Positions 2,467-63,421 of a stretch of 63,421 nucleotides of DNA are shown here, piece after piece. Position 1 is the stretch's first letter. Every line of letters begins with the position of its first letter. The DNA comes from a virus, in the IMG/VR virus record IMGVR_UViG_3300020187_000029; one strand, written 5' to 3'. Under the pieces are notes generated by a model. That model was not told the DNA's origin. It ran no database searches and was given only the letters and a program-made list of their open reading frames with translations. Made by a program: the position numbers and the translations under genes.

Positions 2467-2478
2467 AAATTTTTTGAA

Positions 2479-3467: not shown

Positions 3468-3506
3468 ATTATTCTTCTTTTTTGATTTTCTTAATTTGTT
3501 TAATCA

Positions 3507-4585: not shown

Positions 4586-4590
4586 AATAT

Positions 4591-4779: not shown

Positions 4780-4859
4780 AACTTACTTGTTACATTTTTT
4801 ACACTTGCTGTAAGGCTTTCCACACTTACACATTTTTTTAATTTTTGAATATGCCATAA

Positions 4860-5759: not shown

Positions 5760-5990
5760 GGGGTTACCAAATTTTACATTTTTTTGCTGTTCGCTCTAAC
5801 TTCATGATTTTATTGAGCGTAACGCTCTTACTCTGATATAGTGCCATAACAATAAATTAAAGGGTAAATATAAAAGAAGTCGTCATTAGGAGCCTAATAA
5901 TTCATTACTCGATCTACTGTTGTAAAAGCCAATCCTGAATTTTAATAATACCCAGAACATTATATTTTATTTTTACCAAAAATCAACAAC

Positions 5991-8569: not shown

Positions 8570-10881
8570 TAAAACACACAGAAAAAGCAAACTATCCAAA
8601 CCATAATGTTGACCCAGTACAAAAGGGAAAGGATTGGTGTTTGTCATACGCTAAAGCAGCGTGGTCAGATTATACTCAACATGGCACCCAATCATTTCAT
8701 AATAACAGAGGCACCTATGCAAAGGTAAAAGACTACGCACAAGGAAATCAAAATATTAATAAATATAAATCATTATTAAATGTTGATGAAGCAGATAATG
8801 AAAGTTGGTTTGCTATTGATTGGACTGTTCTACCAATAGTCCCAAAATTTAGACGTATTGCATTAGGTAAACTAAGCAAAACAGAATACAATATTACAGC
8901 CACACCTATAGATTCATTGGCTCAGTCAGATATAGAAACATATTATAAGACTACAAAAGCAAAAATGGATCTTAGAAATATGGCTTCTAAATCCATGCCT
9001 GGTGTAGAAGAATTCAGTGCTTTAAAGGCTCAACCAAAAGAACCTTTAAATGATGAAGAATTAGAAATGCACATGGCTTATACATATAAGCACAATGCCT
9101 CCATTGAAATGGAACAAGGGATTGACCTCATCTTTCATACAAACGATATGGAGGAAAAGCGTAAACAAATAAACGAGTATTTATTTGATTTTGGTGTTGC
9201 AGGATATAAAGAATATATCGATAGTAACGGTGCTGTAAAAATAAGAGTTGTTGATCCTGGTAAATTATTAATATCGCATTGTAATAAAAGAGATTTTACT
9301 GACAAAATACATGTAGGTGAAATTACAGAGATGTCTATTTCTGATCTAAAACAAAGAGCAGGTAGCCAGTTTGATGAAAAAGAATATCAGGATATTGCAG
9401 ATAGGTTTTCTGGAAGGCAAGGGGATACAAAAATGTTCCCAAGCAACAAAAAACACTTTAAGCATTATGATGACAGAAAAATATTAGTCTTAGATATAGA
9501 GTTTTTCTCTGTGGACCAAATGGTTCACGAGTCTAGAACAGACAGAAGAGGAAATAAAAGATTTGGAAGGGCAGGTTATAATAGTTATAACAAGAAAAAA
9601 AATAAATTTATTAGATCATCATACAAAACGGTTTATAAAATATCATGGATAGTTGATTCTGATTATTGTTTTGACTATGGTTTATGTTCTGATATGAAAA
9701 GAGTAAAATCAAACTTGATGGATACAGATTTATCCTATCATTTGTATGCTCCAGATTTTCACAGCATGAAGCCATTAGGTATAATGGAACAATTACTGCC
9801 TATTGCTGATCAAATACAAATTTCCTGGTATAGGCTTCAAAATACAATTAATCAAGCGAGACCTAAAGGGATTATGATCGAACTCGGTGCTCTTGAGGAT
9901 ATTCCATTAGGAGCAGGTGGTCAACAAATGAAACCGATGGATGTTATTGATTTATTCAATAAAACAGGTACCCTTGTTTACAGAAAAAATGATATAGGTG
10001 GTAAGCCAACTAATTATAAGCCAATTGAAGAATTGGAGAATGGATTAGGTAGAGACGCTATGACTTATTATCAGGTTATTCAAAATAACATTGAAATGAT
10101 CAGGCAGATAACAGGTTTAAATGAATTTACAGATGGTTCTACACCAGACGCAAGATCATTAACAACTACTGCTAAGTTAGCAGCCCAAGCCACTAATAAT
10201 GCATTGGCACATATAGAGCAAGGTGAAAGAAGGTTGTTAGAAAAACTTGCATCAGCGGTTATAGTTAGATTACAGGATTCTGTTAAGAAAAAACCTATAG
10301 AGGGTTATATTAGATCCCTGGGCAAGAACACAATGGATTTCTTTAAAATGACAAAGACTGTCTCTAAGCACGAGTTTGGTGTAAAAATAGAAGACAGGCC
10401 TACAGAAGAGCAAAAAGCAAGACTTATGCAAATACTACAGGCTAGTGTTGCACAAGGACAAGTCGATTTTGAGGATGCTGTATTTATTGAGCAAATAACT
10501 AATTTAAAGCAGGCACAACAAGTATTAGCATATCGTATCAAAAAGAAGCGAGAAGAAGCCCAACAGCAAGCCATGCAGCAGCAAGAGCAAAACGGACAAA
10601 TACAAATGCAGTCTGCTCAATCTGCTGAACAATCTAAGCAACAAACATTACAAATGGAGTTGCAGGGTAAAATGCAAATGGAAAAATTAAAAGCAGAACT
10701 ACAGTCTCAACTGCAAAAAGAGAAATATCAGTTTGAATTAGAGTTGGCAGGTATGAGAGAACAAGGTTCAAGCGAAAGAAGTTTAATGGACAATTTACCA
10801 ACAAAAGAGGCTTTTATGGCGGGTATGCAGGAGCAACCAGAAGAAGCACCAGTTCCTGGAGGAATGCCTCAACAACAATAA
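8566..10881 (+). CDS. Portal protein
   Basis: 771 aa ORF immediately after TerL and before scaffold and MCP, with a Gln-rich C-terminal tail. Confidence 0.65.
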   Translation: MIKHTEKANYPNHNVDPVQKGKDWCLSYAKAAWSDYTQHGTQSFHNNRGTYAKVKDYAQGNQNINKYKSLLNVDEADNESWFAIDWTVLPIVPKFRRIALGKLSKTEYNITATPIDSLAQSDIETYYKTTKAKMDLRNMASKSMPGVEEFSALKAQPKEPLNDEELEMHMAYTYKHNASIEMEQGIDLIFHTNDMEEKRKQINEYLFDFGVAGYKEYIDSNGAVKIRVVDPGKLLISHCNKRDFTDKIHVGEITEMSISDLKQRAGSQFDEKEYQDIADRFSGRQGDTKMFPSNKKHFKHYDDRKILVLDIEFFSVDQMVHESRTDRRGNKRFGRAGYNSYNKKKNKFIRSSYKTVYKISWIVDSDYCFDYGLCSDMKRVKSNLMDTDLSYHLYAPDFHSMKPLGIMEQLLPIADQIQISWYRLQNTINQARPKGIMIELGALEDIPLGAGGQQMKPMDVIDLFNKTGTLVYRKNDIGGKPTNYKPIEELENGLGRDAMTYYQVIQNNIEMIRQITGLNEFTDGSTPDARSLTTTAKLAAQATNNALAHIEQGERRLLEKLASAVIVRLQDSVKKKPIEGYIRSLGKNTMDFFKMTKTVSKHEFGVKIEDRPTEEQKARLMQILQASVAQGQVDFEDAVFIEQITNLKQAQQVLAYRIKKKREEAQQQAMQQQEQNGQIQMQSAQSAEQSKQQTLQMELQGKMQMEKLKAELQSQLQKEKYQFELELAGMREQGSSERSLMDNLPTKEAFMAGMQEQPEEAPVPGGMPQQQ

Positions 10882-39674: not shown

Positions 39675-42600
39675 ATGGAAGACGAAGATATCTTAGGAGT
39701 TGATCCTTTTGTAGATTTAAGTACAGAGGAAAAAGAAGATAAATTAATTATTCTTGCGGATAAATTGAGAAAGTCCAGGAATACAGGTATGTCTGGTTTT
39801 GAAATACAAGATATACAAAGTGTTATACCTGACCTTAATCAAAATCAATTTCAAGAGGCTGTAGCCTGGGGTAACACTTTTAATAGAGGTCGTTACGAAC
39901 AAGGTGATGAGTTGAATTCTAAATTTGAAGGTTTATTTCCTGAGTTAGAGGGTGTTCAGTTTCCTGAATATGAAAACAACAACGGTTCTATAAATGTATT
40001 AAATGCCCAAACAAATCCTGATAACGCTCAGGGTAAGTGGGGTAAAATACAAGGTGCTATAGACAAAGGGACTCAGATGTACGATAACCAGGAAGTTGAT
40101 GGTGTTATTGCACAGCCTGGATTGTTGCCAGAAGGAACTGATGAAAGTATAAAAAAGAATTTGATACAATACGGACAGGTGTTAAGACATACTGATCCTG
40201 AGTTTAATAAAAAATACCAACCAGGAGAAGACCCTTTTGAAGATCCTAGGTCTGCATATGAATTTACAAAGCAAGCAAGAAATTTTCAAGGAACTAAATT
40301 TAAAGTTAATGCATTAAGATATATTGCTTCTAACTACGATAAGAATCTATATGATTTTGTAGATAAAAATGAAGACTTTTTTAAGATAATGCCTGAACTG
40401 CGTGAAGATGAAGAGTTCATGAAGATGTATAAATCCCATGAGGATGTAGCATCTAAATATCATGATCATATAAAAGCCAATTTTGGAGATATGTATTCTC
40501 AGGATGCAAGGGATATGCTGCAAACTGCTAGATTAAGTGGGGCTATGGGTCCAGGTGTTGGTGGAATTATGCCTGGTTATCTTGATACTTCTGTTGCAGT
40601 AGGTGTGGGAGCAGTTGTTGAAACTTTAGGAAACTTAGGAGGTGGTCTGTATGAGTTTTTTGCAAAGCATGGCGATAAACTAAATCCAGGGTTATTATTA
40701 GCAGACGCTATAGGAAGTTCACTTGCTTCAGATGAAACAAATGAAAAGTTAGCCGAACTAGATGAAGTATATGACAGACAAGCGGAAGTAACAGCAGATA
40801 AAATCTCCCATTTTTTCTCATCAGATAATTGGAAAGACACATCTTTAGGTCAATATGCATATGTACCTAATGAGGTAGCAGGGGCAGACTTGGCTGACAA
40901 TCCTATGTATATATTACCAATGACATTAAAGACTGTAGGTGAAATGGCTCCTGCGATTGTTGCTGCGGCTTACACAGGTGGAGGTACATTAGTAGCAGGT
41001 TCTATAATGGGGGGTGACCAATTCTTTAAATCTTATCATCAAACAAATAAAGAAGCAAGAGAACTTGGAGTAGATCCAGAAGACGCTGAAGCAATGGCAT
41101 TAAGTATAGCCCTTGTTACTGGTGGTACTAGTGCTTTATTTAATAACCCTTTAGCAAGAAAAGGTGTTGGTGCTATGATGGGTGTAAGACAAAGAGCCAC
41201 AAAAGAAGCGGTTAAAACCTTAGCATCTTCAGGAAGTAGACAAGCAGCAATAAAAGCAGGAGGAAAAGCATATTTAAAAGAAGTTGGAGGTGAGGAGTTA
41301 GAAGAACTTGTACAAGGAGGCTTTGAAAATTATACTAAATACAAGTACGATCAAAACTCTCCAAACCCAGTATATGGTGTAGATAAGTTTATGTCTAAAG
41401 AAGAGTTTACAAATACGGTAATTCTTACTGCAACAGCAACGACTTTAATGGCATCACCAAACCTAGGAATATCTTCATCTCAACTAGAGAAGGAAGCATG
41501 GACAACAGCAGGTTTAGATTATGCCAATTTTGAGAAATCTGTACAAAAAGAATTAAGCAAAAAGAACCCTAAGTTCACTGAGGAAACTGGCCAAGGTATG
41601 TTGGAGAAGGCTAAAGTATATGAAACTATAGTTAAGCCATTAAAAGACTCAGGGGTTAAAATAAATGAGATCACCGAATTGGCTGATGTTGTTTATAATT
41701 CAATGAATGCACCTACACAGCCTGATGCAGAAACATCTGCGGAACCAACTGTAGAGGAAAAGAAAGCAGAAATTAAAAATGGTATACCTAAACAAGGTGC
41801 TATTGTTGACGGAGGCAAAGTTGTTTCTGTAATAGAAAACATAGGAGATAGTGCCACAGATTCTGATTTAAAAACTAAACTAGATAACATCCAGGGTAGA
41901 ACTTTTAAAATGAAAAGGACTTCTCTTGAAACATTATACGAAACAAACAAAGAGTTTAAAAAGTTTGTAGATGAAAATCCTGACATGGTTTATGATGGCA
42001 AGAACAAAAATGCTCCTGCTGTTATTGATAATGAAGGAAATGTTTTAGATGGAATGAAGCGATTGGCTGCTGCATACAACAGAGGCCAAAAAGGAATTAG
42101 AGTTTTTAACGAACAAGAAACCACTGTTTCTAAAGAAGAAGAAACATCTATTGTAAACGCTATAGATAATATTGTATCTCCAACATCGGAGAATAGTACT
42201 AATGAATCTATGCAAGACATAGAAAAAATTGGTAACCATTTTCAAAGAGTGTTCAAAGGATCAACAATAGAATTTGATCAAGAAGTATTTAATGAAGAGG
42301 CCCAAAAAAGAGGATTAGATCCTGCAAAAAACAAAGGGTTTAGAGACAGAAATACAAATCAAATTTATATAAACCCTAAACTTGCTACGCTTGATACACC
42401 TATACATGAGTTTGCTCATATATGGGAAGACATGTTGGCTGAGGTAAATCCAGATGCTCATAAAAAAGCAATGGCTTTAATTAAGGGTACAAAGTTTCAT
42501 AAAGAAGCGGTTGCTAACGGTTATGGCGATAGAGCACTAAACGAGGCTTTAGTACAGGCTATTGGCGAAAAAAGTGCTAAAATATTTAAAGATCCTAAGA

Positions 42601-45600
42601 GACAATCACAGTTTGAAAAAGTAATTGATCAAGTTAAACAGGCAATTAAGCAAGCATTAAACTTACCTGCTGATGCAGATTTTGATATCAAAACAAGTAG
42701 TATTGATGCTGTTATAAACTCAAGTGCTGAGAAAATAATGTCTGCTACAAGTATTGATCCTAATGCAAATAAAGAATCAATTGATGTAGACGCAATTGAC
42801 GCACAGAGATATAAAAACCCTGAGCGTGAAGCAATAAAAGAATTCAATGCGTTAAAAGAAACATTAGAAAACGATCCAACACTATCACAACTTACTCCTG
42901 TGATGAAGGACGGTAAATATCAATTCACTAAAACAAAATCAGGTAAACTAAAAGTTAAAATATCTGGTCAGTCTTATGCTTTGGTTAACGGAGTTAATGA
43001 ACACTTTGAGGGGACTATTGAAGAGAAAATAGACCTGATTGGTGACAAAATTGTAGATGAATTTGAAGCAAATAAGGATGTACCTGAAGTAGTTAAAGGT
43101 TTAGGATGGTATAAAGATTTACATCTAAATATGAGAAACCTCTTTGGAGGTAGAACTAATTTCTTTGGTAGATTATTAGGTGCAACTTCAGGACAGACAG
43201 ATGTACAGCAAAATTACAAATATGCTACTCAAGCATTAGAGGCTTACTCAAAGGGTGCTTATGACAAGTACCTTGAAGAGTATAAAGAGTTTATTGACAG
43301 AGTAGAACAGTTTGAAAACGAAGAGGAATTAAATCAATTCTTTAACGAATATAAGGGAAGAGCAGTAAACGCTTTAAAAAAACAAGGAAAAACTGCTTAT
43401 AGCGAATCAAGAATTAAGCCTGATCCCAAAGACATTAACGAAACAAAAAGAAAGTTATTAAATCTATGGCCAAAGGCTAATCCTTTATATAGAACTGATA
43501 ATCCTACAAAACTATACGGTATTAATAGTCCTGCTGCTGCAAAGGTATTAGCAGGTATATGGTTGCAACAAACTCAGCAATCAAAGACAAATAACTTTTA
43601 TGAAAATGTTGTTGGTTTAACAACAAATCCTACTATTGATTTATGGGCTGCTCGTACAATAAGACGAATGGTTTATGATGGTAATGTTGATAGATACAGA
43701 ATTGCAGAGAGAGCAGAGCAAGGTGTAGATGAAAGAGTTTATGCTGCTGAAGCAGGAGGTTTTTCAGATTATCAATTAGCGGAAGAGGTTATCAAAAACG
43801 CTTCGGCAAAACTAGATATGGATCCCGATGATCTACAGGCATACTTATGGTTTGCAGAAAAGGATCTTTGGTTAAAAAAAGGATGGTCAAAAGGAACTGC
43901 CGCTAAGAAATCTGACTTTAGGGAAGAGGCTGCTAAAGATGATATCACTAGATATTATTTAGGATTAAGTACAGAAAGAGATCAGTATACAGATCCTGAG
44001 TTAGAAGCAAAAGATAACTTAGAGATAATAGAAGAGGAAAGACAGTCTATTCAAAACGACTTAAGAGAGGGTGACCTGGTATCATTAAAAGTAAACGAGA
44101 CACAGGGACAGTATTTAATATATCCTGAAAGAAGTTTTGATGCTGAGATGATTGTAAAATCGGATCAAGATATGACTCCTGTTTTGAAGAGGGCTATTGA
44201 GTCGGCAAAGAAACATGAACAAGAGTCGGTATTCTTGTCAGAGGTATTACCTATTGATGAGAGAATGGATCCTGAAACAATGGAGAGAGAATTGGCTAAA
44301 CGTCCAAACGCTCGGCCTGCTGTTGAAATGCAATTTAGAACTCCTATGAGTTTTGAAGAAGCATCTACTTTTGCTAGAGAAAATTTAGACAAAGAAGGTG
44401 TTCAATTAGGACCAGTAAAAACAGATATTTCTGGTTATACTTTTATAACTAATGAAGAAGGAAATAAGGTCTTAGGTGTTAAGTATCAGTTTGTTCCAGA
44501 GTTTGTTTTTGAAAACGAAGAGGATATTACAGATGATAATGTAAGGCAAGCAGTTAGTGACTGGAGTAATAATGCACATGAAACTAAATTAAATTTAGAA
44601 AACAACGAAAATGTTTTGTACTTTTACAACCATTATGTAGATACATTCGTTGCTCACAATAATCAATACAACGGAATCTTAAATAATATAGAAAATGGAT
44701 CAAAAGACATATTTAAAGGAACTAGCAAAACACGCACAAAGGAATACTTCCAATCAAAGGCCACAAGAGTCGAACCCCAACAAGGAAGTCCAAGTGTCGA
44801 TGCACAAAGACAACAAGATGAAGGGGATAGATCCCGCTTCTCTGGAACTGTATCGCCAAATGATGGCGGATCGATTTCAGGAGTCGAACACAGAAGAATA
44901 GATCAGGCAAAACTACCTGATCAACTTACACAGTTACTTACTACATTAAGTGGACAAGGCATGGTGCCTTCTAAACTTATACCCGCAATTAAGATATATT
45001 CTCAAAGAGTAGATGGTAAAGAACTATCTACTGAACAAGCGAGAATGCTGCTTAATAAATTCATGGGGTCTGAAGGTTTTAGACAAAGAGGATTTGAAAC
45101 AGGATCTATTGAAAATGCTAAGGACAGCGATGAAGGAAAGCAGGAAGTATATGATTGGGTAAACGAAAATCCCAACTATTACCAAACCATGGATATGAAA
45201 CAAACCATGGAACTAGTATTAGATGATATAAATTCTAGAGGTGGTTTTGAAAACGAACAAGTAATAAAAGATTTACTAGGTAGTAATACCACTGTTAAAG
45301 AATTAGCAAGAGTACAGTTAGCACGTCAAGCAGCATTACATCATTACGGATTAAAAGTCAGTAAACTTAGATCGGAGGGTGCATCAGGTGCGGAGATAGA
45401 TTCTGTAATTGATACAATGGCTAAAATAGAACGTGTTTTAGCAAAAGACGCTACAGAAGCAGGACAAGCATCTGCCGCATTAAGATCTTGGACAGCACAA
45501 ACAGCCGCTACATTAATTGACAGGACTGAACGTGCCATGGAGAAGTTTAATGAGGACATGGACAATAAGAGTAAGTTTGGTAATTTTATTCATAGGCTTT

Positions 45601-47885
45601 TTGGAGGTAAACAAAAATTAGAAAGCACAACACTATCACCAGAACAGCGTAAAAAAATTGAAGAGTTACACTCTATAATTAAAGACGCTCCTGCTAACAG
45701 TGAACTTGCTAATGTTGCTATGAGATCTATGTATAAATATATGGATTCGGTATTACCTTCTTACACATGGCAAGACACGTTTTTTGGTTTGCAATACGCA
45801 GCACTTTTATCAGGTGTTTCTACGCAAGTATTAAATGTAACATCAGGTAGTGCAAACATTGTTTTGCAACCGTTAATGGAAATGTCTAGAATAGATAAAA
45901 TATTTACAGGCGGTTACTTTGATTTCATAAGAAAGATTGGTTCTGGCACAAATAAAAAAGGTATGCAGCAAGGTTATAACATGGCTATGGATATCTGGAA
46001 AAATGGAGCCAGGGTAGATAAATACCAGAACTCTGAAAGCACACCAGATGGTGGTCAGTACAATGTTTTAGAAACTACAGAGTTTAAAGGTGGTAAAGCA
46101 AATCCTTACAACTACTATAAGTATGTGGGTAGAATGCTAAATGCTACTGATAGATTTATAAGTAAAGTTGGATATGAAGGTAGATATTATAATTATCTGA
46201 TAGATCAATTAAGAAAAGATGGTGTTCCTAAAAGTCAATTAAGAAAGAGAGCATCAGACTTATACTTAGCAACTGAAGTTAGTAGAACCGCACAAAAGGA
46301 AATGGAAACCTTAATGAACAGAATGCGTGAGGCTGATCCTGATACTGATTTTAGTAATATAGAAGTTGTTAGAGCAAGAGAATTAATGCACGAAGCACTT
46401 GCTTTAAAATATAGTGAGGACTTTGTTGACAAATCAGATGCTGAACTTGAAGTAATGAAGGAAAAAGATGGTTTCGATGGAACCATTGAAGAGTTTAAAG
46501 AATACATGAAGGCCATGAAAGAGGCTGAAATAAACGGTATTGCTACAGACGCTAACCTGGCAAGTAATGCACAGGTGTTTATAGACAATAGACCAGGAAG
46601 TTTTGCTCAACCTATTGCTTGGGTCGCTGAGAAAATTCGACAAGCATCCAATTCACAAAGTATAGGATTTGGTGGAAAACTTGCCATGAAATCATTTGTA
46701 CCTTTTACAAGTATTATTGGTTCAATTGGTGAATATATGATCGATGTTACACCTGGTATAGGTTTAGCAAGAGCATATATGGCTAAGGATGGTTTAGGTG
46801 AAAAAGGATCTAGAATGAGAGATGAACAAATGTCTAGAGCATACTTTGGTACAATGTCGTTTTTAGGTTTAGCAGCACTTGCGGCTAAGGCATATGAAGA
46901 TGATGATGAAGAACCGTTTTTTGAAGTAAGTGGTGGAGGTTACAACAACTCTAACATGTACACTAGAAACGATATGAAGAATGCTGCACTACCTCCATAT
47001 TCTTTTAAAGTTGGTGGTGTAGTTATGGATTATAGAAACATAGTTCCTTTAGCAATTCCAATGGCTATTATAGGTAATTATATGGAAACTCACAAGATGA
47101 CAGGAGGAAAAGGTGAGGTGTTTGATGACATGCAAGATAGATTGCTTATTGCTTATGCAAACTCTGCTAACTTAATTATGGATTCATCTGTACTTACATC
47201 TGTAAAAGAATTAACTGAGGCTATATTTGGTCAAGTAGATGGTAGAGGGTCTCAGTTTGATCCTAATACAGTTAGTGATTCTAGTTTAAATAAAACATTA
47301 CAGCGAATAGGTAAAACATCTATAAAATCTATTGGAGGAACTGTTTTAAGACCACTACCGCAAAACCTAAATTTATTTAGACAAACGACTAAAATTCTTG
47401 ACGCAAACTCATACAGTGCGGGAGATGCTAAAAATGCATTGTTATATGCAGCAGGACTTAGTCAAATTGCAGGTCAACCAAAGGTAGATGTGTTTGGTGA
47501 ACAGGCTAAAAGTTATCCAGGTGAAACAGTAATCCCTTATACTCATTGGTTTGGCTTAAGAGGTGAAGATGCTAGATGGCAGTTTTTAGATAAGTATAAT
47601 GCTTATCCTGGTAAAATTCAAAACAGACCTATGAAAATAGGAAGAGACATGAGAACTCTTACAGATGATGAACTTTACCAACATCAAATAACTACTGGTC
47701 AAGAGTTTAATAAACTCATTACTAATTATATGAGAGGAAGAGGTAGACGTGAAGATAAAATACTTACTTACTCAGGTAGATCTCAAAGCATGCACAAGAT
47801 GAACATTTCTAAAATGTGGGCTGCTGCTCAGGCTAAATCTAAACTGAGAAATAAAAAATCCTGGAGGAACACAATAATAGATTAA
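39675..47885 (+). CDS. Giant polyvalent-type virion/ejection protein (2736 aa) with ParB-like and zincin (HExxH) motifs
   Basis: PAVIDNEGNVLDGMKRLAAAY (nt 42042-42077) resembles the ParB/Srx DGxxRxxAA box. HEFAH lies at nt 42405-42419. Several Gly/Ala-rich hydrophobic segments. Lies directly upstream of the lysis genes. Confidence 0.55.
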   Translation: MEDEDILGVDPFVDLSTEEKEDKLIILADKLRKSRNTGMSGFEIQDIQSVIPDLNQNQFQEAVAWGNTFNRGRYEQGDELNSKFEGLFPELEGVQFPEYENNNGSINVLNAQTNPDNAQGKWGKIQGAIDKGTQMYDNQEVDGVIAQPGLLPEGTDESIKKNLIQYGQVLRHTDPEFNKKYQPGEDPFEDPRSAYEFTKQARNFQGTKFKVNALRYIASNYDKNLYDFVDKNEDFFKIMPELREDEEFMKMYKSHEDVASKYHDHIKANFGDMYSQDARDMLQTARLSGAMGPGVGGIMPGYLDTSVAVGVGAVVETLGNLGGGLYEFFAKHGDKLNPGLLLADAIGSSLASDETNEKLAELDEVYDRQAEVTADKISHFFSSDNWKDTSLGQYAYVPNEVAGADLADNPMYILPMTLKTVGEMAPAIVAAAYTGGGTLVAGSIMGGDQFFKSYHQTNKEARELGVDPEDAEAMALSIALVTGGTSALFNNPLARKGVGAMMGVRQRATKEAVKTLASSGSRQAAIKAGGKAYLKEVGGEELEELVQGGFENYTKYKYDQNSPNPVYGVDKFMSKEEFTNTVILTATATTLMASPNLGISSSQLEKEAWTTAGLDYANFEKSVQKELSKKNPKFTEETGQGMLEKAKVYETIVKPLKDSGVKINEITELADVVYNSMNAPTQPDAETSAEPTVEEKKAEIKNGIPKQGAIVDGGKVVSVIENIGDSATDSDLKTKLDNIQGRTFKMKRTSLETLYETNKEFKKFVDENPDMVYDGKNKNAPAVIDNEGNVLDGMKRLAAAYNRGQKGIRVFNEQETTVSKEEETSIVNAIDNIVSPTSENSTNESMQDIEKIGNHFQRVFKGSTIEFDQEVFNEEAQKRGLDPAKNKGFRDRNTNQIYINPKLATLDTPIHEFAHIWEDMLAEVNPDAHKKAMALIKGTKFHKEAVANGYGDRALNEALVQAIGEKSAKIFKDPKRQSQFEKVIDQVKQAIKQALNLPADADFDIKTSSIDAVINSSAEKIMSATSIDPNANKESIDVDAIDAQRYKNPEREAIKEFNALKETLENDPTLSQLTPVMKDGKYQFTKTKSGKLKVKISGQSYALVNGVNEHFEGTIEEKIDLIGDKIVDEFEANKDVPEVVKGLGWYKDLHLNMRNLFGGRTNFFGRLLGATSGQTDVQQNYKYATQALEAYSKGAYDKYLEEYKEFIDRVEQFENEEELNQFFNEYKGRAVNALKKQGKTAYSESRIKPDPKDINETKRKLLNLWPKANPLYRTDNPTKLYGINSPAAAKVLAGIWLQQTQQSKTNNFYENVVGLTTNPTIDLWAARTIRRMVYDGNVDRYRIAERAEQGVDERVYAAEAGGFSDYQLAEEVIKNASAKLDMDPDDLQAYLWFAEKDLWLKKGWSKGTAAKKSDFREEAAKDDITRYYLGLSTERDQYTDPELEAKDNLEIIEEERQSIQNDLREGDLVSLKVNETQGQYLIYPERSFDAEMIVKSDQDMTPVLKRAIESAKKHEQESVFLSEVLPIDERMDPETMERELAKRPNARPAVEMQFRTPMSFEEASTFARENLDKEGVQLGPVKTDISGYTFITNEEGNKVLGVKYQFVPEFVFENEEDITDDNVRQAVSDWSNNAHETKLNLENNENVLYFYNHYVDTFVAHNNQYNGILNNIENGSKDIFKGTSKTRTKEYFQSKATRVEPQQGSPSVDAQRQQDEGDRSRFSGTVSPNDGGSISGVEHRRIDQAKLPDQLTQLLTTLSGQGMVPSKLIPAIKIYSQRVDGKELSTEQARMLLNKFMGSEGFRQRGFETGSIENAKDSDEGKQEVYDWVNENPNYYQTMDMKQTMELVLDDINSRGGFENEQVIKDLLGSNTTVKELARVQLARQAALHHYGLKVSKLRSEGASGAEIDSVIDTMAKIERVLAKDATEAGQASAALRSWTAQTAATLIDRTERAMEKFNEDMDNKSKFGNFIHRLFGGKQKLESTTLSPEQRKKIEELHSIIKDAPANSELANVAMRSMYKYMDSVLPSYTWQDTFFGLQYAALLSGVSTQVLNVTSGSANIVLQPLMEMSRIDKIFTGGYFDFIRKIGSGTNKKGMQQGYNMAMDIWKNGARVDKYQNSESTPDGGQYNVLETTEFKGGKANPYNYYKYVGRMLNATDRFISKVGYEGRYYNYLIDQLRKDGVPKSQLRKRASDLYLATEVSRTAQKEMETLMNRMREADPDTDFSNIEVVRARELMHEALALKYSEDFVDKSDAELEVMKEKDGFDGTIEEFKEYMKAMKEAEINGIATDANLASNAQVFIDNRPGSFAQPIAWVAEKIRQASNSQSIGFGGKLAMKSFVPFTSIIGSIGEYMIDVTPGIGLARAYMAKDGLGEKGSRMRDEQMSRAYFGTMSFLGLAALAAKAYEDDDEEPFFEVSGGGYNNSNMYTRNDMKNAALPPYSFKVGGVVMDYRNIVPLAIPMAIIGNYMETHKMTGGKGEVFDDMQDRLLIAYANSANLIMDSSVLTSVKELTEAIFGQVDGRGSQFDPNTVSDSSLNKTLQRIGKTSIKSIGGTVLRPLPQNLNLFRQTTKILDANSYSAGDAKNALLYAAGLSQIAGQPKVDVFGEQAKSYPGETVIPYTHWFGLRGEDARWQFLDKYNAYPGKIQNRPMKIGRDMRTLTDDELYQHQITTGQEFNKLITNYMRGRGRREDKILTYSGRSQSMHKMNISKMWAAAQAKSKLRNKKSWRNTIID

Positions 47886-49170: not shown

Positions 49171-49185
49171 TTACAATGTAATTAC
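49167..49185. terminator. Hairpin at the convergent gene junction (GTAATTAC-aat-GTAATTAC)
   Basis: Two self-complementary 8-mers span both stop codons and are followed by TTT. The stem is AT-rich, so the hairpin is weak. Confidence 0.35.
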
Positions 49186-50424
49186 TTTATCCCTCAACAT
49201 TTCAAACATTTCAGATACCCTGTACTTAATTAAAATGTCTGAATGAAACTTTGTATACTTTGCTAACATCATTGGTGCCTGAGTGTCCTTATAATGTTTT
49301 GAAATTGTATTATCTGTTTGAAACATAAGTTCTCTTATATCAGCATCTGGAATACTAATAATGGATCCTGTTGTGTTGAATGCTTTTCTTGCTGACTTAT
49401 AACTATGACCTGTCAATTTCTTGAATTGCATTTGATTGACTTTCCAAACACTATCATCTACCGAACCACTCATTATTGGAAAAAGACTGTCACTGTTTGT
49501 GTTGGTTATATTATTTAATAATCGTATAATTTTCTTTATTGGATCTAGCCCCATATACACTAAGCCCATTTTATTAGTCTTTGATCTAAAGTGTTTGTAT
49601 ACCATATTCTTTTCAGCAAATAAATATGTATTATGATTTTCATAAGTAGAGTTTACAAATGACTTCATTGATAACTTCTCAAGGTCTTTAGCATACATTC
49701 CTCTCATTGAAAACATTAATAAATAAATCAAAATAGATATTACTTCTTTATTAAATTTTTTATCATTGGGGTTTAAGTCTTTAATTACATCAATTAATTC
49801 ATGAGATTTAATCCACTGTGGAGTGAAATTATTTTGTGGATTTGTTCTTACGTGAGGAAAAACATTAAATGTGATTTCATCTTTTAAAGCGTGAGAATGA
49901 ATTGCTTTTATTGCTCTATGATAAGTATTAAATGTAGCAGGACTTCTGCCTCTTTCTAACAGGACTTTTTTAAGTTTCACCCAAACCTGTTTCTGACATA
50001 CATCTTGAAAAGTGAGGTTCTTAATTCCAATATTAGAAGCAACTGATCTTACTTTGTTCTTATAATCATTAAAAGTGGTATCTCTCATTTGATCCTTAAG
50101 ATGATTATCTAGGTAGGAATTAATGTCATTTACATAAGATCCATAGGTTAATCTAGTTTTAGCCTCTTCAAATGTAAGAGTTCCAATAGCACTTTGCATG
50201 TGAAGATCATGAACAACATCCGTTAGTTTTTTTACTTGTTTATTCTTTTGTTCAAAATATGGATGATCAGGTTTTAACCTTTTGTTTTTTTTATCCCAAT
50301 ATTTTTTATACACTTTTATTGAAGTATATATTTTTTTATCTAGCAGTTTATTTTTAAAACGAACATGCAACAATACAGTTCCATCTTTATTAGTTTCGTT
50401 TCTGCTTCCAATTAATAGTCCCAT
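49171..50424 (-). CDS. int: Tyrosine recombinase / integrase (Bacteroidota-type, with an N-terminal arm-binding-like domain)
   Basis: The N-terminus LLHVRFKNKL..IKVYKKYWDKKNKRLK resembles arm-DNA-binding domains. The C-terminus carries MRGMYAKDL (R), LTGHSYKSARKAFNT (H..R) and SKHY (Tyr). Confidence 0.7.
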   Translation of the reverse strand: MGLLIGSRNETNKDGTVLLHVRFKNKLLDKKIYTSIKVYKKYWDKKNKRLKPDHPYFEQKNKQVKKLTDVVHDLHMQSAIGTLTFEEAKTRLTYGSYVNDINSYLDNHLKDQMRDTTFNDYKNKVRSVASNIGIKNLTFQDVCQKQVWVKLKKVLLERGRSPATFNTYHRAIKAIHSHALKDEITFNVFPHVRTNPQNNFTPQWIKSHELIDVIKDLNPNDKKFNKEVISILIYLLMFSMRGMYAKDLEKLSMKSFVNSTYENHNTYLFAEKNMVYKHFRSKTNKMGLVYMGLDPIKKIIRLLNNITNTNSDSLFPIMSGSVDDSVWKVNQMQFKKLTGHSYKSARKAFNTTGSIISIPDADIRELMFQTDNTISKHYKDTQAPMMLAKYTKFHSDILIKYRVSEMFEMLRDKVITL

Positions 50425-51246: not shown

Positions 51247-51630
51247 TTAAAACGGTAGATCAGGACCATCTTGTTTACCATTAACAAAGTTTTCAACCTT
51301 CTGCTCATGAGAATTAGACTTTCCGTTTGGAATGTTTCCATCGGCATAAGTAATTTTCCATGCGTTAGCATTAGCAGTCCTCAACTCTCCGTTACGATCT
51401 CTGTAACTTCTAAGGTTAATAGAAACCAATACTTCGTCTCCGCTTTTGTAAGCACTAAACAAGTTTGCCTTGGCACCAATTGCTTCAACAGGATAGTCTA
51501 CAGGATACTGACTATCAGCACCTAATTCAACTGTTAATACTCTTTTTTCAATCTCTCCTTTTTGAGTTTGAATGGTTTGTGCATCAGAGATGTTTTTGAT
51601 ACGACCTTGTAATTCTAATGAATTGCTCAT
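51247..51630 (-). CDS. ssb: Single-stranded DNA-binding protein
   Basis: OB-fold-sized N-terminal part with an acidic C-terminal tip ...DGPDLPF (the SSB D-D-D-I-P-F type). Confidence 0.6.
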   Translation of the reverse strand: MSNSLELQGRIKNISDAQTIQTQKGEIEKRVLTVELGADSQYPVDYPVEAIGAKANLFSAYKSGDEVLVSINLRSYRDRNGELRTANANAWKITYADGNIPNGKSNSHEQKVENFVNGKQDGPDLPF

Positions 51631-57555: not shown

Positions 57556-58518
57556 TTATTTTATTAACATTTGATTGTGTATTCTTTTTTGTTTTTCTAT
57601 AGAGTCTGAGTTACTGTGCTTTACGTATCTATAAAATGCTTTTGAGCCGTTAGTGTGCCCGCTAATATTCCTGGCCTCGATCTCGCTAAGACCCTTGGAT
57701 AGTTGGTAAGTTATACCGCTTGCTCTTAGTTTGTGGGGAGTTATAAGATCAAACAAAAACTTTTCTTCATGCACAGGGTTACCGTTATGATCATAACTGT
57801 ACACTATTTTCTTTTTATGAAATTCATTATAAAACTTAAGCAGTTCTTTAAGTCTTACTCTAAAGTATTGTTGTGACTGAGAAAAGGATCCCTTGCCCTC
57901 CAGGAATTTTAAAACATCATCAGGTAAGTAAAAAGAAGATATTGATCCTACTCCTTTTTTAGTAATTATCGTAACAACACTGCCATCTGAAGAGGCCTGG
58001 AAGTTTACCAGGTCACTTACTCTCATGCAAGAGTATAGCATAAGCCTGGTGTAGTACCATATATCCTGGAGTTCGATTCCTGGGTTGTTGTTATGTATAA
58101 GTTCTACTTGTGATGGCTCTAGAGCAATGACCTCCGTTTGAAGTTCCTTCATGCTCTGTAGTCCAGGAAACAGGTAACCATAATATGCTTCTGCTTTTTT
58201 AAGAGTTGTTCTTATTATTTTTAAATGTGTTTTCCTGGTGTTATGATGTTTGCAATCTTCTAGCATCATGTTGAGGTACTTATTTACGTGCGTCTGTAAA
58301 TTTCGGGTGACCTTCAATCTATCCTTTCTACTGTTTACGCTATTAAGATCTAAAGCATCTACATTAAAGTTATAATTGTATGCAGACATTTGATTGTATA
58401 CCTGTCTGTAGGAAGTTATAGTAAGGTTTGAAAATTTCTTTCCATAATTCAATATAGATCCATCCTCTAGTAAAGTAATGACTTGTTTCAGTAAGTGTAA
58501 AAAGGTTCCAGGCTTCAT
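57556..58518 (-). CDS. Tyrosine recombinase (second copy, short Xer/integrase-like)
   Basis: CMRVSDL (R), TPHKLRASGITY (HxxR) and SGHTNGSKAFYRYV (H...Y). Confidence 0.8.
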   Translation of the reverse strand: MKPGTFLHLLKQVITLLEDGSILNYGKKFSNLTITSYRQVYNQMSAYNYNFNVDALDLNSVNSRKDRLKVTRNLQTHVNKYLNMMLEDCKHHNTRKTHLKIIRTTLKKAEAYYGYLFPGLQSMKELQTEVIALEPSQVELIHNNNPGIELQDIWYYTRLMLYSCMRVSDLVNFQASSDGSVVTIITKKGVGSISSFYLPDDVLKFLEGKGSFSQSQQYFRVRLKELLKFYNEFHKKKIVYSYDHNGNPVHEEKFLFDLITPHKLRASGITYQLSKGLSEIEARNISGHTNGSKAFYRYVKHSNSDSIEKQKRIHNQMLIK

Positions 58519-60218: not shown

Positions 60219-60578
60219 TTATGAATTAAGTTTTTTAAATTGTAGTGTTAAGTTATCCTTCCAATGATCCTTGTCGTTGAGGTATTCGTCTATAATCTTA
60301 TTGACTAAGGGCAATTCCTCTACACCTAAGCCCGCCAATTTGGTTACCAGGGAGTCAATATGATTTTGAATATTCATATAAAACTGCTCATCGTTTTTAG
60401 CAAACAGGTTTATATACTTTTCCAATTCTTTTTCCAATTCTTTTTCTGCAATTTTTACTTTATGCTTTAAAGAGTGTTTAAAGATCTTTGTTTCTTTTAC
60501 ATCATCTAATGCTTCTAACATTAGTTGGCCATAGATCACCGCCTTGGTGACGCTATAAAATGTTTGTTCTTTATTCAT
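60219..60578 (-). CDS. Hypothetical protein (119 aa)
   Basis: ORF. Confidence 0.55.
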   Translation of the reverse strand: MNKEQTFYSVTKAVIYGQLMLEALDDVKETKIFKHSLKHKVKIAEKELEKELEKYINLFAKNDEQFYMNIQNHIDSLVTKLAGLGVEELPLVNKIIDEYLNDKDHWKDNLTLQFKKLNS

Positions 60579-60729
60579 ATTCTCTCATGTCTATTGGCTC
60601 CACATAAAATGTTTTACACAGTTTGTTATAAGTTTCTACTCCTGATCGAGACATTCTTTGTGTCTCCCATCCAAGGTCTACTATTTGATCCTGGATCTGT
60701 TTCAATTTTTTCATTGTTATTACTGCCAT
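60571..60729 (-). CDS. Small hypothetical protein (52 aa)
   Basis: Hand-translated: MAVITMKKLKQIQDQIVDLGWETQRMSRSGVETYNKLCKTFYVEPIDMREYE. TAATG overlap upstream, and the stop overlaps the next ATG. Confidence 0.5.
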   Translation of the reverse strand: MAVITMKKLKQIQDQIVDLGWETQRMSRSGVETYNKLCKTFYVEPIDMREYE

Positions 60730-61040
60730 TATTCCTCTTCTTTTAAAACTGTTAATAAATCCTTAAACACATCTATAAATCTGCATTCAAGTTCGTTTTC
60801 TGAAAACTCTATACGGTTTCCTGTATGTTGTAAATCAATACAGCCTATGTCTGTAGAAAAATCTTCAAATCCATTTTCAGTAAATATCCTTTGGATCTCC
60901 ATCATGGCTAGTTTAACTTTTAACTTTGCTTCAACTACTATGTCATCAGGGTTTAAATTAGTTTTCTTAAGTTCTTGTTTGAAGTAGGTATTTACTTCTC
61001 CCATTGTGTAATCTTCGGTATCAGTTATTAAGTATTTCAT
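60729..61040 (-). CDS. Hypothetical protein (103 aa)
   Basis: ORF. Confidence 0.55.
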   Translation of the reverse strand: MKYLITDTEDYTMGEVNTYFKQELKKTNLNPDDIVVEAKLKVKLAMMEIQRIFTENGFEDFSTDIGCIDLQHTGNRIEFSENELECRFIDVFKDLLTVLKEEE

Positions 61041-61477
61041 TATGAGTTGGTGTTTAAAATTGCGTAAATATTATCTATACATTCGCCATCACTTGGTGGC
61101 TCTTCGTTTGAGTCGGCCTCGTATTCTACCAGGTCCATGATCGCCTCAATTACTCTCATCATTCCAAAGCCTTCTGCTTTTTCTGTAGAGTTTCCGCTGT
61201 CTAATAATTCCTGGGCTTGTTCCTTTAGGCTGTAACGATTTGGGGTGACCTCCTCTTTGTCTTCAACCCAAGGACATGCTTTATTGTATAGAGAGAGAGC
61301 AAGTGTCTCATCGCCTATAGCAGTCATAAGAATATTTAATTCACCTCTTTGTGCTCTACCTCTTCTATAAACTCCAGGATCTTCTGATCTCTCGAAGTGC
61401 CAATCGTGAGAGGTTAACGCTTTTTGTAATTTAATGATCGCATTTAATTTTAATTGAACAGTTTGCATGATTTTCAT
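61040..61477 (-). CDS. Hypothetical protein (145 aa from the ATG at 61477)
   Basis: The track start at 61492 is a TTG lying inside hammerhead stem I. The first ATG (MKIMQTV...) lies 16 nt downstream of the predicted ribozyme cut. Confidence 0.55.
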   Translation of the reverse strand: MKIMQTVQLKLNAIIKLQKALTSHDWHFERSEDPGVYRRGRAQRGELNILMTAIGDETLALSLYNKACPWVEDKEEVTPNRYSLKEQAQELLDSGNSTEKAEGFGMMRVIEAIMDLVEYEADSNEEPPSDGECIDNIYAILNTNS

Positions 61478-61488
61478 TTTTAAGTTAT

Positions 61489-61540
61489 ACAAAGACGCTT
61501 CGCAGCGTTTCGCCTGGATCTCACAGGCTCATCAGTTTGT
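61489..61540 (-). ncRNA. Type-I hammerhead self-cleaving ribozyme (HH-A)
   Basis: Minus strand: ACAAA|CUGAUGA|GCCUG-UGAGAUC-CAGGC|GAA|ACGCU-GCGA-AGCGU|C^|UUUGU. All invariant core positions are present. Predicted cut after C at 61494. Confidence 0.85.
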
Positions 61541-61702
61541 TTATCCCAGGAAACCAAAAGTTGCGTTAGGATCTATACCTTCTGTTACCAGGTGAAAGAT
61601 TAGCATTGTGAATGATACAGCCCATACAGTAAATAAAGATCCTATAAAGGTTTTTGTTGCGATTGTTTGAATTTTGTTTAACATGGTTTTTCAGTTTAAA
61701 TT

Positions 61703-61855
61703 ATTAATTGATTATTTGTTGTAGTTCATTAAGTTGATAAGATCGGATTGCTCTCCTACTAAGTTCATTGCTGTTAACAATGCTAGTCCTAGAAAAGTAA
61801 TTGCTAATGCGACTACTGTTGCGACTAGTACTAATTTTAATTTTGATTTTGACAT
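61703..61855 (-). CDS. Small protein (50 aa) with an N-terminal hydrophobic segment
   Basis: Hand-translated codon by codon: MSKSKLKLVLVATVVALANYFSRTSIVNSNELSRRAIRSYQLNELQQIIN. Its ATG lies 27 nt after the HH-B cut. It replaces the plus-strand ORF 61734-61934. Confidence 0.45.
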
Positions 61856-61876
61856 TTTGTTTATTTTAAATTATTT

Positions 61877-61926
61877 GACAATGACGCTTCGCAGCGTTTC
61901 GATCATAAAGATCTCATCAGATTGCC
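61877..61926 (-). ncRNA. Type-I hammerhead self-cleaving ribozyme (HH-B)
   Basis: Minus strand: GGCAAU|CUGAUGA|GAUC-UUUAU-GAUC|GAA|ACGCU-GCGA-AGCGU|C^|AUUGUC. Predicted cut after C at 61883. Stem I overlaps the UAG stop of 61926-62171 by 1 nt. Confidence 0.85.
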
Positions 61927-62171
61927 TAGTATAGTTCCTTGTCTACTTGCATCCATAGATTATAAACATAGTTGTAATTGGTGCCGATCATATTGGCAAG
62001 TTGCTCAAACAATCTCTCTCTTACCAGGCTGTCATCAACACCTATGTAGAGGTAAACATCAGCACCTGTATGTAAGCAATCCATTAAGGCTACAAATGTT
62101 GTTAAATTGATTTCAGATCCCAATTCATCTGTTGGGTATTTTTCCTGGTAGAATTCTCTTAATGTTAACAT
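61926..62171 (-). CDS. Hypothetical protein (81 aa)
   Basis: ORF preceded by the conserved leader motif. Confidence 0.55.
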   Translation of the reverse strand: MLTLREFYQEKYPTDELGSEINLTTFVALMDCLHTGADVYLYIGVDDSLVRERLFEQLANMIGTNYNYVYNLWMQVDKELY

Positions 62172-62181
62172 AGTTTTCAGT

Positions 62182-62517
62182 TTAAATTGTTTGTGTGTAT
62201 AATTCGTTTGTTACTTCTTCGCCTATTATATAAACAATCATGTTTACAGTAGTTTCCGCATTGTCGTAAGTTCTTACAGCATCATCACCAAAATTTTCTC
62301 TCTCGTAGTTCTGTACAAATGCGATTGCTTCAAAAGGATCAATGTTGTGTTTTTTTAACCATTGGCTACAGTTGTAATAACCGATTAAATAATAATCATT
62401 GTTGAATGCTTCCTGGTGTAGGTCGTTATCATCGCTATTCCATTTAACATCGTTGTTATCAGCGATAAAATCATTTAAATACTCTTTTAGTTCAGTTTTG
62501 ATTGTTTCAGTATACAT
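62182..62517 (-). CDS. Hypothetical acidic protein (111 aa)
   Basis: ORF preceded by the conserved leader. Its ATG lies 25 nt after the HH-C cut. Confidence 0.55.
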   Translation of the reverse strand: MYTETIKTELKEYLNDFIADNNDVKWNSDDNDLHQEAFNNDYYLIGYYNCSQWLKKHNIDPFEAIAFVQNYERENFGDDAVRTYDNAETTVNMIVYIIGEEVTNELYTQTI

Positions 62518-62538
62518 TGTTTTCAGTTTAAATTATTA

Positions 62539-62590
62539 ATCAGACATCCCGAAGGATGTTTCGCCTGGATCTCACAGGCTCATCAGTGAT
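62539..62590 (-). ncRNA. Type-I hammerhead self-cleaving ribozyme (HH-C)
   Basis: Minus strand: AUCA|CUGAUGA|GCCUG-UGAGAUC-CAGGC|GAA|ACAUCC-UUCG-GGAUGU|C^|UGAU. Predicted cut after C at 62543. Confidence 0.8.
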
Positions 62591-62591
62591 C

Positions 62592-62867
62592 TTATGCTCG
62601 TGCTACAATTCCGTCTAGAGTGTCGGCAATTGCGTGTAGATCTCTAAGCATCATAATATCATGTGAGTATAAACGATCAGCCTCGGCTCTAAGATTTGTG
62701 TAGTAGTAACCGTCATAGATACCGTAAAGAGAGTTGACCAAATCTGATGCTCTAAAGCCTCCGTTACGTAGGTTGTGAATTGTTGTTTGGATAAATGACA
62801 TCATCATTGGATTGAATGTTGTGTATCTATCGAATCTTTCTGTGGTGTTGTAGTTTGAATTTTGCAT
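62592..62867 (-). CDS. Hypothetical protein (91 aa)
   Basis: ORF. Confidence 0.55.
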   Translation of the reverse strand: MQNSNYNTTERFDRYTTFNPMMMSFIQTTIHNLRNGGFRASDLVNSLYGIYDGYYYTNLRAEADRLYSHDIMMLRDLHAIADTLDGIVARA

Positions 62868-62967
62868 TTTATTTTCAGTTTTAATTAATTAGTTATTAGT
62901 AGTTGTTACTTCTCATGAAGGTTGCAAATAATGCGATTGGAATTGCTAGTGCTATTAAGATCATGGC

Positions 62968-63213
62968 TTATTGGTTTACAGAGTTAATAAATCTTAAGGC
63001 TTCTTTTTTGCTAGTAAATTCTGTACCGCCTGAAAAAGGCTTATATAAATCTTCTTGAAATAGTTGATTGAATGGATCAGAAGGATCTTTGTAGTAGTTG
63101 AAATCAACACCATGCTCGCCCCAATCACTGTATGATATTCTAGCGTTGTGGACTTTGATACCTGTGAAGTTCGGAAGGTATTCTGTTTGCAGTTCTGTAC
63201 TTAAGTAATTCAT
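62968..63213 (-). CDS. Hypothetical protein (81 aa), first gene of the early operon
   Basis: ORF preceded by the leader motif and the candidate early promoter. Confidence 0.55.
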   Translation of the reverse strand: MNYLSTELQTEYLPNFTGIKVHNARISYSDWGEHGVDFNYYKDPSDPFNQLFQEDLYKPFSGGTEFTSKKEALRFINSVNQ

Positions 63214-63282
63214 AATTTCAGTTTAAATAATTGATATTCAGTTAATTAGCGTTTCGAGTGTCATGCTCGCTGAACGATGGTA

Positions 63283-63315
63283 CAAATATAACGCATTATT
63301 TTATTAACATCCAAA
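63283..63315 (-). promoter_or_regulatory. Candidate early promoter, Bacteroidota sigma-A type (TTTG-N21-TATATTTG)
   Basis: On the minus strand the -33 TTTG is at 63315-63312 and the -7 TATATTTG at 63290-63283, about 70 nt upstream of the first early ATG. Confidence 0.5.
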
Positions 63316-63421
63316 TGTGAATATCACTTTTTTTAGTAAATACCTCTGTATAACCTGTAAAACCTAGGAAAAAAACTTTAAAAAAAATTTGAACGCATGT
63401 CCAAGCGGGGGGTAATTTATC
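63295..63421. repeat. Terminal overlap copy 2 (identical to 1-127)
   Basis: Same as above. Confidence 0.95.

Follow-up and report, generated by a model that had tools for sequence, protein, structure and literature searches.

Candidate type I hammerhead ribozymes between small leftward genes of a tailed-phage genome

Locus and gene arrangement

The window, i.e. the whole stretch of viral DNA analyzed here (63,421 nt; IMG/VR record IMGVR_UViG_3300020187_000029), is a tailed-phage genome; its plus strand carries terminase, portal, and structural genes and its minus strand primase-helicase, RecE-like exonuclease, and integrase-like genes. Its TerL is at most 33% identical to Flavobacterium and Cellulophaga phage terminases, and because of this relationship a host from the Bacteroidota (Flavobacteriia-like) is likely. 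The genome also contains a 2736-aa ORF in the structural arm (39675-47885, plus strand), two tyrosine-recombinase/integrase-like genes in the replication/early arm (49171-50424 and 57556-58518, minus strand), and a tRNA-Arg(tct) gene (145-221, minus strand).

Within a leftward block of small ORFs at the right end of the window, three minus-strand hammerheads are located between small ORFs. This study deals with the middle one, HH-B, whose two sisters are 0.4 and 0.65 kb away. The features of the locus are as follows, a slash in a ribozyme sequence marking the predicted cut and R1 and R2 being covariance models described below:

63283..63314, minus strand: candidate Bacteroidetes-type promoter, TTG-N21-TATATTTG (TTGGATGTTAATAAAATAATGCGTTATATTTG), from a consensus match
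62538..62591, minus strand: sister hammerhead GAUCA-CUGAUGA-GCCUG(UGAGAUC)CAGGC-GAA-ACAUCC(UUCG)GGAUGU-C/UGAUU, found with R1 and R2
61926-62171, minus strand: upstream CDS of 81 aa, the UAG stop codon of which (61928-61926) overlaps stem I of HH-B by one base
61877..61926, minus strand: HH-B, complete type I hammerhead of 50 nt, from sequence, MFE structure, and custom covariance models
61926-61921 and 61882-61877, minus strand: HH-B stem I, 6 bp including G61925-U61878
61920-61914, minus strand: HH-B core CUGAUGA
61913-61910 and 61904-61901, minus strand: HH-B stem II (GAUC and GAUC) with loop UUUAU at 61909-61905
61900-61898, minus strand: HH-B GAA
61897-61893 and 61888-61884, minus strand: HH-B stem III (ACGCU and AGCGU) with loop GCGA at 61892-61889
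61883, minus strand: HH-B C17, the predicted cut lying between 61883 and 61882
61856..61882, minus strand: predicted 27-nt 5′-OH leader of the downstream mRNA, AUUGUC followed by the A/U-rich tract AAAUAAUUUAAAAUAAACAAA
61712..61855, minus strand: downstream CDS of 47 aa, hydrophobic and single-TM-like (MSKSKLKLVLVATVVALAITFLG...), which stays linked to HH-B across contigs
61489..61540, minus strand: sister hammerhead ACAAA-CUGAUGA-GCCUG(UGAGAUC)CAGGC-GAA-ACGCU(GCGA)AGCGU-C/UUUGU, found with R1 and R2

Both sisters carry the stem II GCCUG/CAGGC ascribed to them in the initial annotation. The first (62591-62538) begins directly after the UAA stop codon of ORF 62592-62867, and its predicted cut is 25 nt before the ATG at 62517; the second (61540-61489) begins directly after the UAA stop codon of ORF 61541-61684, and its stem-loop III is identical to that of HH-B. 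The ORF downstream of HH-B had been given as 61703-61855 with 50 aa and had to be corrected to 61712-61855 with 47 aa. Pfam and PHROG scans of the small ORFs flanking HH-B yielded no function, and the 81-aa upstream CDS had no match in them. Two plus-strand ORFs with TTG starts (61734-61934 and 61922-62110) were set aside as mechanical antisense ORFs over the conserved minus-strand genes, as nothing supports them. A 111-aa ORF (62182-62517, minus strand; PHROG 10208) separates the first hammerhead from the 81-aa ORF. It is missing in the related contig L015, where the first hammerhead directly precedes an 84-aa orthologue of the 81-aa protein; gene content between the ribozymes is therefore variable.

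About 70 nt separate the promoter candidate from the first ORF of the leftward early block downstream. No other site on the minus strand within the right-hand 19 kb matches the Bacteroidetes promoter consensus TTG-N(17-23)-TAnnTTTG, and the candidate fits a Bacteroidota host. Gene orientation and this one consensus match suggest that a single transcript may run from 63314..63283 through all three hammerheads.

A 12-mer, TTTAAACTGAAA (in longer context AAUAAUUUAAACUGAAAA), was observed on the minus strand 2-5 nt before the ATG in a row of five small early ORFs, as exact copies at 63227..63216, 62532..62521, 62186..62175, and 61700..61689 and with one mismatch at 62884..62873; the window holds no further exact copy. 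One copy lies directly 3′ of the sister 62591-62538, and a degenerate copy (AAAUAAUUUAAAAUAAACAAA) lies 3′ of HH-B. The 12-mer may serve as an element for translation initiation or as a binding site for a protein.

Architecture of HH-B

Read from 61926 to 61877 on the minus strand, the sequence is GGCAAU-CUGAUGA-GAUC(UUUAU)GAUC-GAA-ACGCU(GCGA)AGCGU-C/AUUGUC. All elements described in the initial annotation are thus present at the coordinates given there, in the order stem I 5′ strand, CUGAUGA, hairpin II, GAA, hairpin III, C, and stem I 3′ strand. Stems II and III are loop-capped and stem I is the open helix, which gives the type I topology. The core is canonical throughout, with C3-A9 as CUGAUGA, G12A13A14, the pairs A15.1-U16.1 and G10.1-C11.1, and GUC as cleavage triplet; none of the 13 core nucleotides and none of the pairs adjacent to the core is altered. 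The Watson-Crick pairs adjoining the core are G61913-C61901 (10.1-11.1), U61921-A61882 (1.1-2.1), and A61897-U61884 (15.1-16.1).

Further details of the initial annotation were confirmed, namely the 6-bp stem I with one G-U pair (G61925-U61878), the 5′ G as last base of the UAG stop codon (G61926 ends the codon 61928-61926), and the predicted cut after C17 at 61883, with 27 nt (61882-61856) between it and the AUG at 61855. Its description of a 4-bp stem II as minimal did not hold: stem I has 6 bp and stem II has 4 bp in the Rfam type I consensus itself, and most of the viral type I hammerheads retrieved in this study share this geometry, with a 5-nt U-NNN-U loop (see below). Judged by these sequence features, HH-B is, among the three hammerheads in the window, the most canonical and not the marginal one.

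Chance expectation and folding

The pattern CTGATGA-N(6-30)-GAAA occurs seven times in the window (1.7 expected). Three of these sites are hammerhead-shaped, all on the minus strand and within 1.1 kb, i.e. 62591-62538, 61926-61877, and 61540-61489. A descriptor comprising the core and three stems likewise had three matches in the window, all on the minus strand, while 300 dinucleotide-preserving shuffles of the window had on average 0.0033 matches and never more than one. Since three matches stand against 0.0033 per shuffled window, the HH-B motif is real and not a product of chance.

The MFE structure of the isolated 50-mer is exactly the hammerhead three-way junction. With 30-nt flanks, the MFE structure instead pairs the 5′ strand of stem I with upstream coding sequence. 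The fold z-score of HH-B (−0.61) means weak thermodynamic support, fold z-scores being uninformative overall in this analysis (−0.6 to −1.3).

Covariance models

At the gathering score, Rfam called no hammerhead in the whole window, and at E≤10 neither the 63-kb nor a 401-nt query gave a match to HH-B. With a 76-nt query, HH-B received 13.6 bits (E 0.7) from Hammerhead_1 (RF00163), the gathering score of which is 34. The initial annotation had named rejection of the short stem II by the covariance model as a finding that would count against HH-B; the score is indeed below the Rfam threshold, but the alignment extends over model positions 1 to 45, ends exactly at 61926 and 61877, contains no non-canonical pair, and pairs HH-B with a consensus of 6 bp in stem I and 4 bp in stem II. 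The low score results from the stem sequence, as the model favors GUCC/GGAC in stem II, and not from the architecture. A member of the same viral class having GUCC/GGAC as stem II (contig L005, 2233-2282) passes the Rfam threshold with 36.2 bits. When 18 loci were scanned with Rfam at the gathering score, one hammerhead was called, whereas custom models find many in those loci. The Rfam type I model thus misses a common viral hammerhead subclass. A match of Rfam Hammerhead_3 to 62555-62611 (21.9 bits) was rejected, as it aligns the sister type I element in a wrong permutation and does not represent a type III hammerhead.

Two custom covariance models were used, the E-values of which are rough due to short calibration. 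The training set of R1 comprised 22 hammerheads from other viral contigs, none of them having the stem I found in the window. Because half of these had the stem II of HH-B, R2 was built from 11 sequences having none of the three HH-B stems. HH-B was the top match in the window with both models, scoring 53.4 bits (E 7.2e-13) with R1 and 46.8 bits (E 7.7e-11) with R2. The sister at 62538..62591 reached 36.5 bits (E 5.5e-8) and 37.9 bits, and that at 61489..61540 reached 36.2 and 36.1 bits, respectively. Beyond these three, the R1 search of the window gave no match at E≤10. Two weak R2 matches were set aside, one at 51311-51356 (15.1 bits), which lacks the CUGAUGA core and therefore does not qualify as a hammerhead, and one at 2642-2687 (10.9 bits).

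Relatives and covariation

For comparative analysis, viral contigs were scanned in two ways. The first scan specified the core and GAUC-N5-GAUC (20 specified bases) and left stems I and III unconstrained. It retrieved 39 viral contigs, 27 of them with complete type I hammerheads in which stems I and III varied but were always paired (for stem I e.g. GGUUAA/UUAACC, GCGUUA/UAACGC, GUCCAA/UUGGAC, GACUAA/UUAGUC, GCAUGA/UCAUGC, and GUUACA/UGUAAC); the other 12 were read as open-stem-III or otherwise different forms. The second scan specified GGCAAU and the core, with stems II and III unconstrained, and in all of the 20 contigs retrieved AUUGUC follows the cleavage triplet. Stem II appeared in the compensatory forms GAUC/GAUC, GACC/GGUC, GUCC/GGAC, GGAA/UUCC, and GGAC/GUCC and in one bulged variant. 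By these sequence comparisons, the helices of HH-B are supported by covariation, stems I and III by the first scan and stem II by the second. In a further set of hammerheads (A2), 100% of the cells were paired and nine of 14 pairs showed double changes, compared with 24-33% paired cells in slid controls; as this set was chosen by a pairing descriptor, its counts are partly circular, and the two scans were relied on for unbiased support.

Orthologues of HH-B were recognized by the conserved hydrophobic ORF of 46-47 aa behind them. The core is invariant in these orthologues, and loop II has 4 nt in L042, 5 nt in the window, and 6 nt in L045. A compensatory change from U-A to C-G converts stem II from GAUC/GAUC to GACC/GGUC in L047, and stem III has an extra C-G pair in L004, L042, and L047. 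Seven contigs share HH-B with 100% identity over its 50 nt, while their upstream protein is just 79% identical; at the sequence level, HH-B is thus conserved above the flanking protein gene. Since the upstream gene in L004 is unrelated and the small downstream ORF is nevertheless retained behind the HH-B orthologue, HH-B is linked to the downstream gene across contigs. The predicted leader (61856..61882) is conserved in the orthologues of L004, L042, and L047.

The pattern of core conservation and stem variation bears on whether the hairpins might form an intrinsic terminator or attenuator between early genes, with a merely coincidental hammerhead core. A terminator scan flags stem III of one sister (61508..61495), which is followed by CUUUGUAUAA; HH-B itself is not flagged, and CAUUGUCAAAUAA after its stem III contains no U run. 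Moreover, a terminator leaves the invariant CUGAUGA/GAA core and the covarying stem I bracketing the element unexplained, so that we give this explanation practically no weight.

Several relatives, among them L015 (2407-2492), L017 (3634-3719), and L004 (8159-8244), have one more hammerhead, the fourth, which follows the third after about 1 kb. It reads GCAAA CUGAUGA GCCUG UGUAACU CAGGC GAA ACGAGGGAG...CUCCCUCGU C UUUGU and contains an insertion of about 50 nt in stem III. This fourth hammerhead of the close relatives has no counterpart within the window.

A megablast search of window positions 60400-63421 against a phage collection gave no match. The same core and stem II were rarer in cellular genomes and were mostly found there in the open-stem-III form: a scan of genome contigs retrieved nine MAG contigs, mostly with open stem III and one with a type I form. 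These nine contigs did not point to a host.

Taken together, the core, the type I topology, the covariation of all three stems across viral contigs both related and unrelated, and the scores of the independent covariance models support in silico the initial reading of HH-B as a hammerhead.

A viral class of type I hammerheads

In the first 39 loci, 70 type I hammerheads (45 of them non-redundant) matched the descriptor, and a contig often had several on one strand. HH-B belongs to the majority geometry, i.e. 6 bp in stem I, 4 bp in stem II, and a 5-nt loop II with U at both ends (U-NNN-U; 6/4 class). The second geometry, with 5 bp in each of stems I and II and a 7-nt loop II, comprises its two sisters and their relatives. 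Among 29 sequences of the 6/4 class, the outermost pair of stem I is G-C in 26, and adenine predominates around the 6-bp stem I at −1 (26 sequences), +1 (25), and +2 (23). HH-B fits this pattern with A61927 and A61876-61875, and its stem I has neither extension nor bulge. This hints that in the 6/4 class flanking adenines, rather than a bulge in stem I, may contact loop II. Beyond these conserved adenines, no tertiary contact between stem I and loop II was identified in HH-B. A pseudoknot between loop II and the stem I flank was considered by eye across the class, as AUUUA follows members with a UAAAU loop in several contigs; it was rejected since the pattern is absent from L030, L038, L004, L008, and L005 and the flanks are A/U-rich. 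Hammerheads that lack a stem I/loop II contact are slow at physiological Mg2+.

The apparent lack of such a contact, the sub-threshold Rfam score, and the weak fold z-score would all suit a hammerhead relic that no longer cleaves and acts as a structured intergenic spacer or 3′-end stabilizer. In a relic, however, one would not expect all 13 core nucleotides and the core-adjacent pairs to be intact, the core to stay invariant in orthologues while stems and loops vary by compensation, or the element to be better conserved than the flanking protein gene, and we regard loss of activity as very unlikely. As to the preferred reading, we consider it highly likely from sequence that HH-B is a functional type I self-cleaving hammerhead which, together with its two sisters, cuts the leftward early polycistronic transcript.

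Two other members of the retrieved hammerheads may be mentioned. L005 (IMGVR_UViG_3300042884_000166) is an extreme case of a multi-hammerhead operon: about 7 kb of its minus strand (2233-9483) contain at least nine hammerheads of type I, several of which share identical stems I and II (AUCUAA ... GUCG GUAA CGAC). In the cultured Schitoviridae phage RHph_Y38 of Rhizobium (L058, 1497-1544; MN988483.1, about 74204-74251), an unannotated 6/4 type I hammerhead with 47.7 bits in R2, GUGUAU CUGAUGA GAUC UUAUU GAUC GAA ACGCU UA AGCGU C AUACAC, starts 6 nt past the 3′ end of tRNA-Pro(tgg), which suggests a role in tRNA 3′ trailer processing.

Stop codon, ribozyme, and start codon

The overlap of HH-B with the upstream stop codon has parallels in other contigs. 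In L011, L015 (703-957), L017, L022, L025, and L035, the upstream ORF reads ...TAC CAG GCA ATC TGA. In these close relatives TAG is changed to CAG, so the ORF stops three codons later at the UGA within the CUGAUGA core; accordingly, the 84-aa L015 orthologue, which is 79% identical to the 81-aa protein, extends by three codons to the core UGA. L023 was left out of this check because it begins too near the ribozyme. Among the 45 non-redundant hammerheads, an upstream ORF was called for 44, and in 36 of these its stop codon is located at −2 to +22 of the ribozyme start. These stops abut or overlap stem I, use the core UGA, or lie inside stem-loop II (+20/+22), and the next start codon mostly follows 15-32 nt past the cut. 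Ribozymes that overlap a stop codon recur within the class.

Such a placement is compatible with a gating of cleavage by translation. A terminating ribosome would occupy the core together with stem I and some of stem II and thereby block folding, and cutting would then report on, or be timed by, ribosome traffic on the upstream cistron. The overlap of the stop with stem I in HH-B, the core UGA in close relatives, the positions at +20/+22 in stem-loop II elsewhere, and the recurrence of stops in or at the ribozyme across unrelated contigs speak for gating. Compact phage genomes, however, overlap signals for economy alone, and a stop within the ribozyme may simply be the first one in frame. Hammerheads also usually fold and cleave co-transcriptionally, which might happen ahead of the first ribosome. 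On balance, gating by the ribosome seems improbable to us, and we favor constitutive processing of the early transcript by self-cleaving hammerheads.

Discussion

In the preferred reading, the nascent early transcript would fold into the three-way junction as soon as the 3′ strand of stem I emerges, HH-B would cut after C61883, and the 6-bp A/U-rich stem I would then melt. Because stem I is the open stem, the upstream fragment would retain its stop codon together with nearly the whole ribozyme and end in hairpins II and III and a 2′,3′-cyclic phosphate. The downstream fragment would start with a 5′-OH at AUUGUC and carry an unstructured A/U-rich leader of 27 nt before the AUG of the 47-aa gene. 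The compact layout would be workable because the type I topology leaves just six ribozyme nucleotides on the downstream mRNA. With all three hammerheads, the leftward early polycistronic transcript would be divided into pieces of one or two genes. Processing would be constitutive, and its purpose might be to insulate the downstream start region from upstream RNA or to give adjacent cistrons different stabilities. Such purposes have also been put forward for the hammerhead arrays of prophages (PMC3088659). We infer that HH-B cleaves in vivo and that it may serve to uncouple the stability or translation of adjacent cistrons, with an insulated downstream start.

RNA ends of the kind predicted here, 5′-OH and 2′,3′-cyclic phosphate, can be ligated by RtcB-type ligases. 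RNA lying between two hammerheads would have both ends, and pairs of hammerheads might therefore excise this RNA and circularize it, as in retrozymes or viroids. In the window the three stem I sequences differ (GAUCA/UGAUU, GGCAAU/AUUGUC, and ACAAA/UUUGU), and because of this difference the excised ends could not rebuild a self-ligating hammerhead. Perreault et al., who raised circularization as a possibility, also sought spliced or circular products and found none (PMC3088659). We therefore consider circularization extremely improbable and return to the cutting of the early transcript into separate mRNAs.

Multiple hammerheads flanking genes in prophages were described by Perreault et al. in 2011. 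They cleave in vitro and in E. coli and were proposed to process long phage transcripts into gene-length mRNAs, and the arrays tested came from Clostridium scindens, Azorhizobium, and Agrobacterium prophages (PMC3088659). The biological benefit of phage hammerheads is regarded as unresolved (PMC6765202). As in those arrays, the window has several intergenic hammerheads on one strand that flank single genes or short blocks of non-constant identity. In contrast to them, the genome is of a lytic type, about 63 kb in size and akin to Flavobacterium/Cellulophaga phages, and the array consists of three type I hammerheads only, in a strict layout of stop, ribozyme, and, after about 26 nt, start. By its sequence and placement, HH-B very probably represents an additional, unannotated example of a kind known since 2011, namely type I hammerheads arrayed in phage operons.

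Among the Rfam families, Hammerhead type I (RF00163, clan CL00010) shares with HH-B the catalytic core, the open stem I, the 6/4 stems, and the GUC triplet, whereas HH-B differs by A/U-rich stems and by GAUC/GAUC instead of the model-favored GUCC/GGAC in stem II. Compared with eukaryotic type I hammerheads, stem I of HH-B stops at 6 bp, and the classical contact between a stem I bulge and loop II is not evident. The RAGATH-1 hammerhead (RF03152) also has type I topology and a short stem II and gave the best Rfam score on the 76-nt segment (16.2 bits). Membership in this family was rejected since its gathering score is 56.3, the 5′ hairpin of the model (a 13-nt loop region) is collapsed to 3 nt, and stem II of HH-B has its full 4 bp as opposed to one pair in the model.

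A comparison can also be drawn with type I hammerheads in the 5′ UTRs of fungal and plant RNA viruses, which enable translation initiation (bioRxiv 10.1101/2024.05.16.594327). As in these, HH-B is located directly upstream of an ORF, and its cut would create the 5′ end of a translated RNA; those systems, however, are eukaryotic and concern cap-independent translation, while HH-B belongs to a bacterial DNA phage and precedes an internal cistron. A more far-reaching idea is that the 6/4 U-NNN-U hammerheads form a distinct phage ‘cistron separator’ module, with conserved unpaired adenines flanking stem I as receptor of loop II in place of the classical stem I bulge, a stop codon within or adjoining the ribozyme, and cleavage about 26 nt ahead of the following start, in which cleavage is ribosome-gated and/or the 5′-OH A/U-rich leader is needed for efficient downstream initiation. 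We consider this idea unlikely on present sequence evidence. If true, it would mean that the ribozyme-dependent translation of eukaryotic RNA viruses has a bacterial counterpart, in hosts (Bacteroidota) without Shine-Dalgarno pairing.

HH-B leaves the knowledge of ribozyme classes and mechanisms unchanged. What is new is a well-supported, unannotated array of three predicted type I hammerheads in the putative early operon of a Flavobacteriia-type phage. The layout of stop codon, ribozyme, and start codon after about 26 nt, for which 45 non-redundant examples are now at hand, provides a testable handle on the purpose of genomic hammerheads in phages, which may lie in the insulation of mRNAs, in differential stability, or in help for translation initiation.
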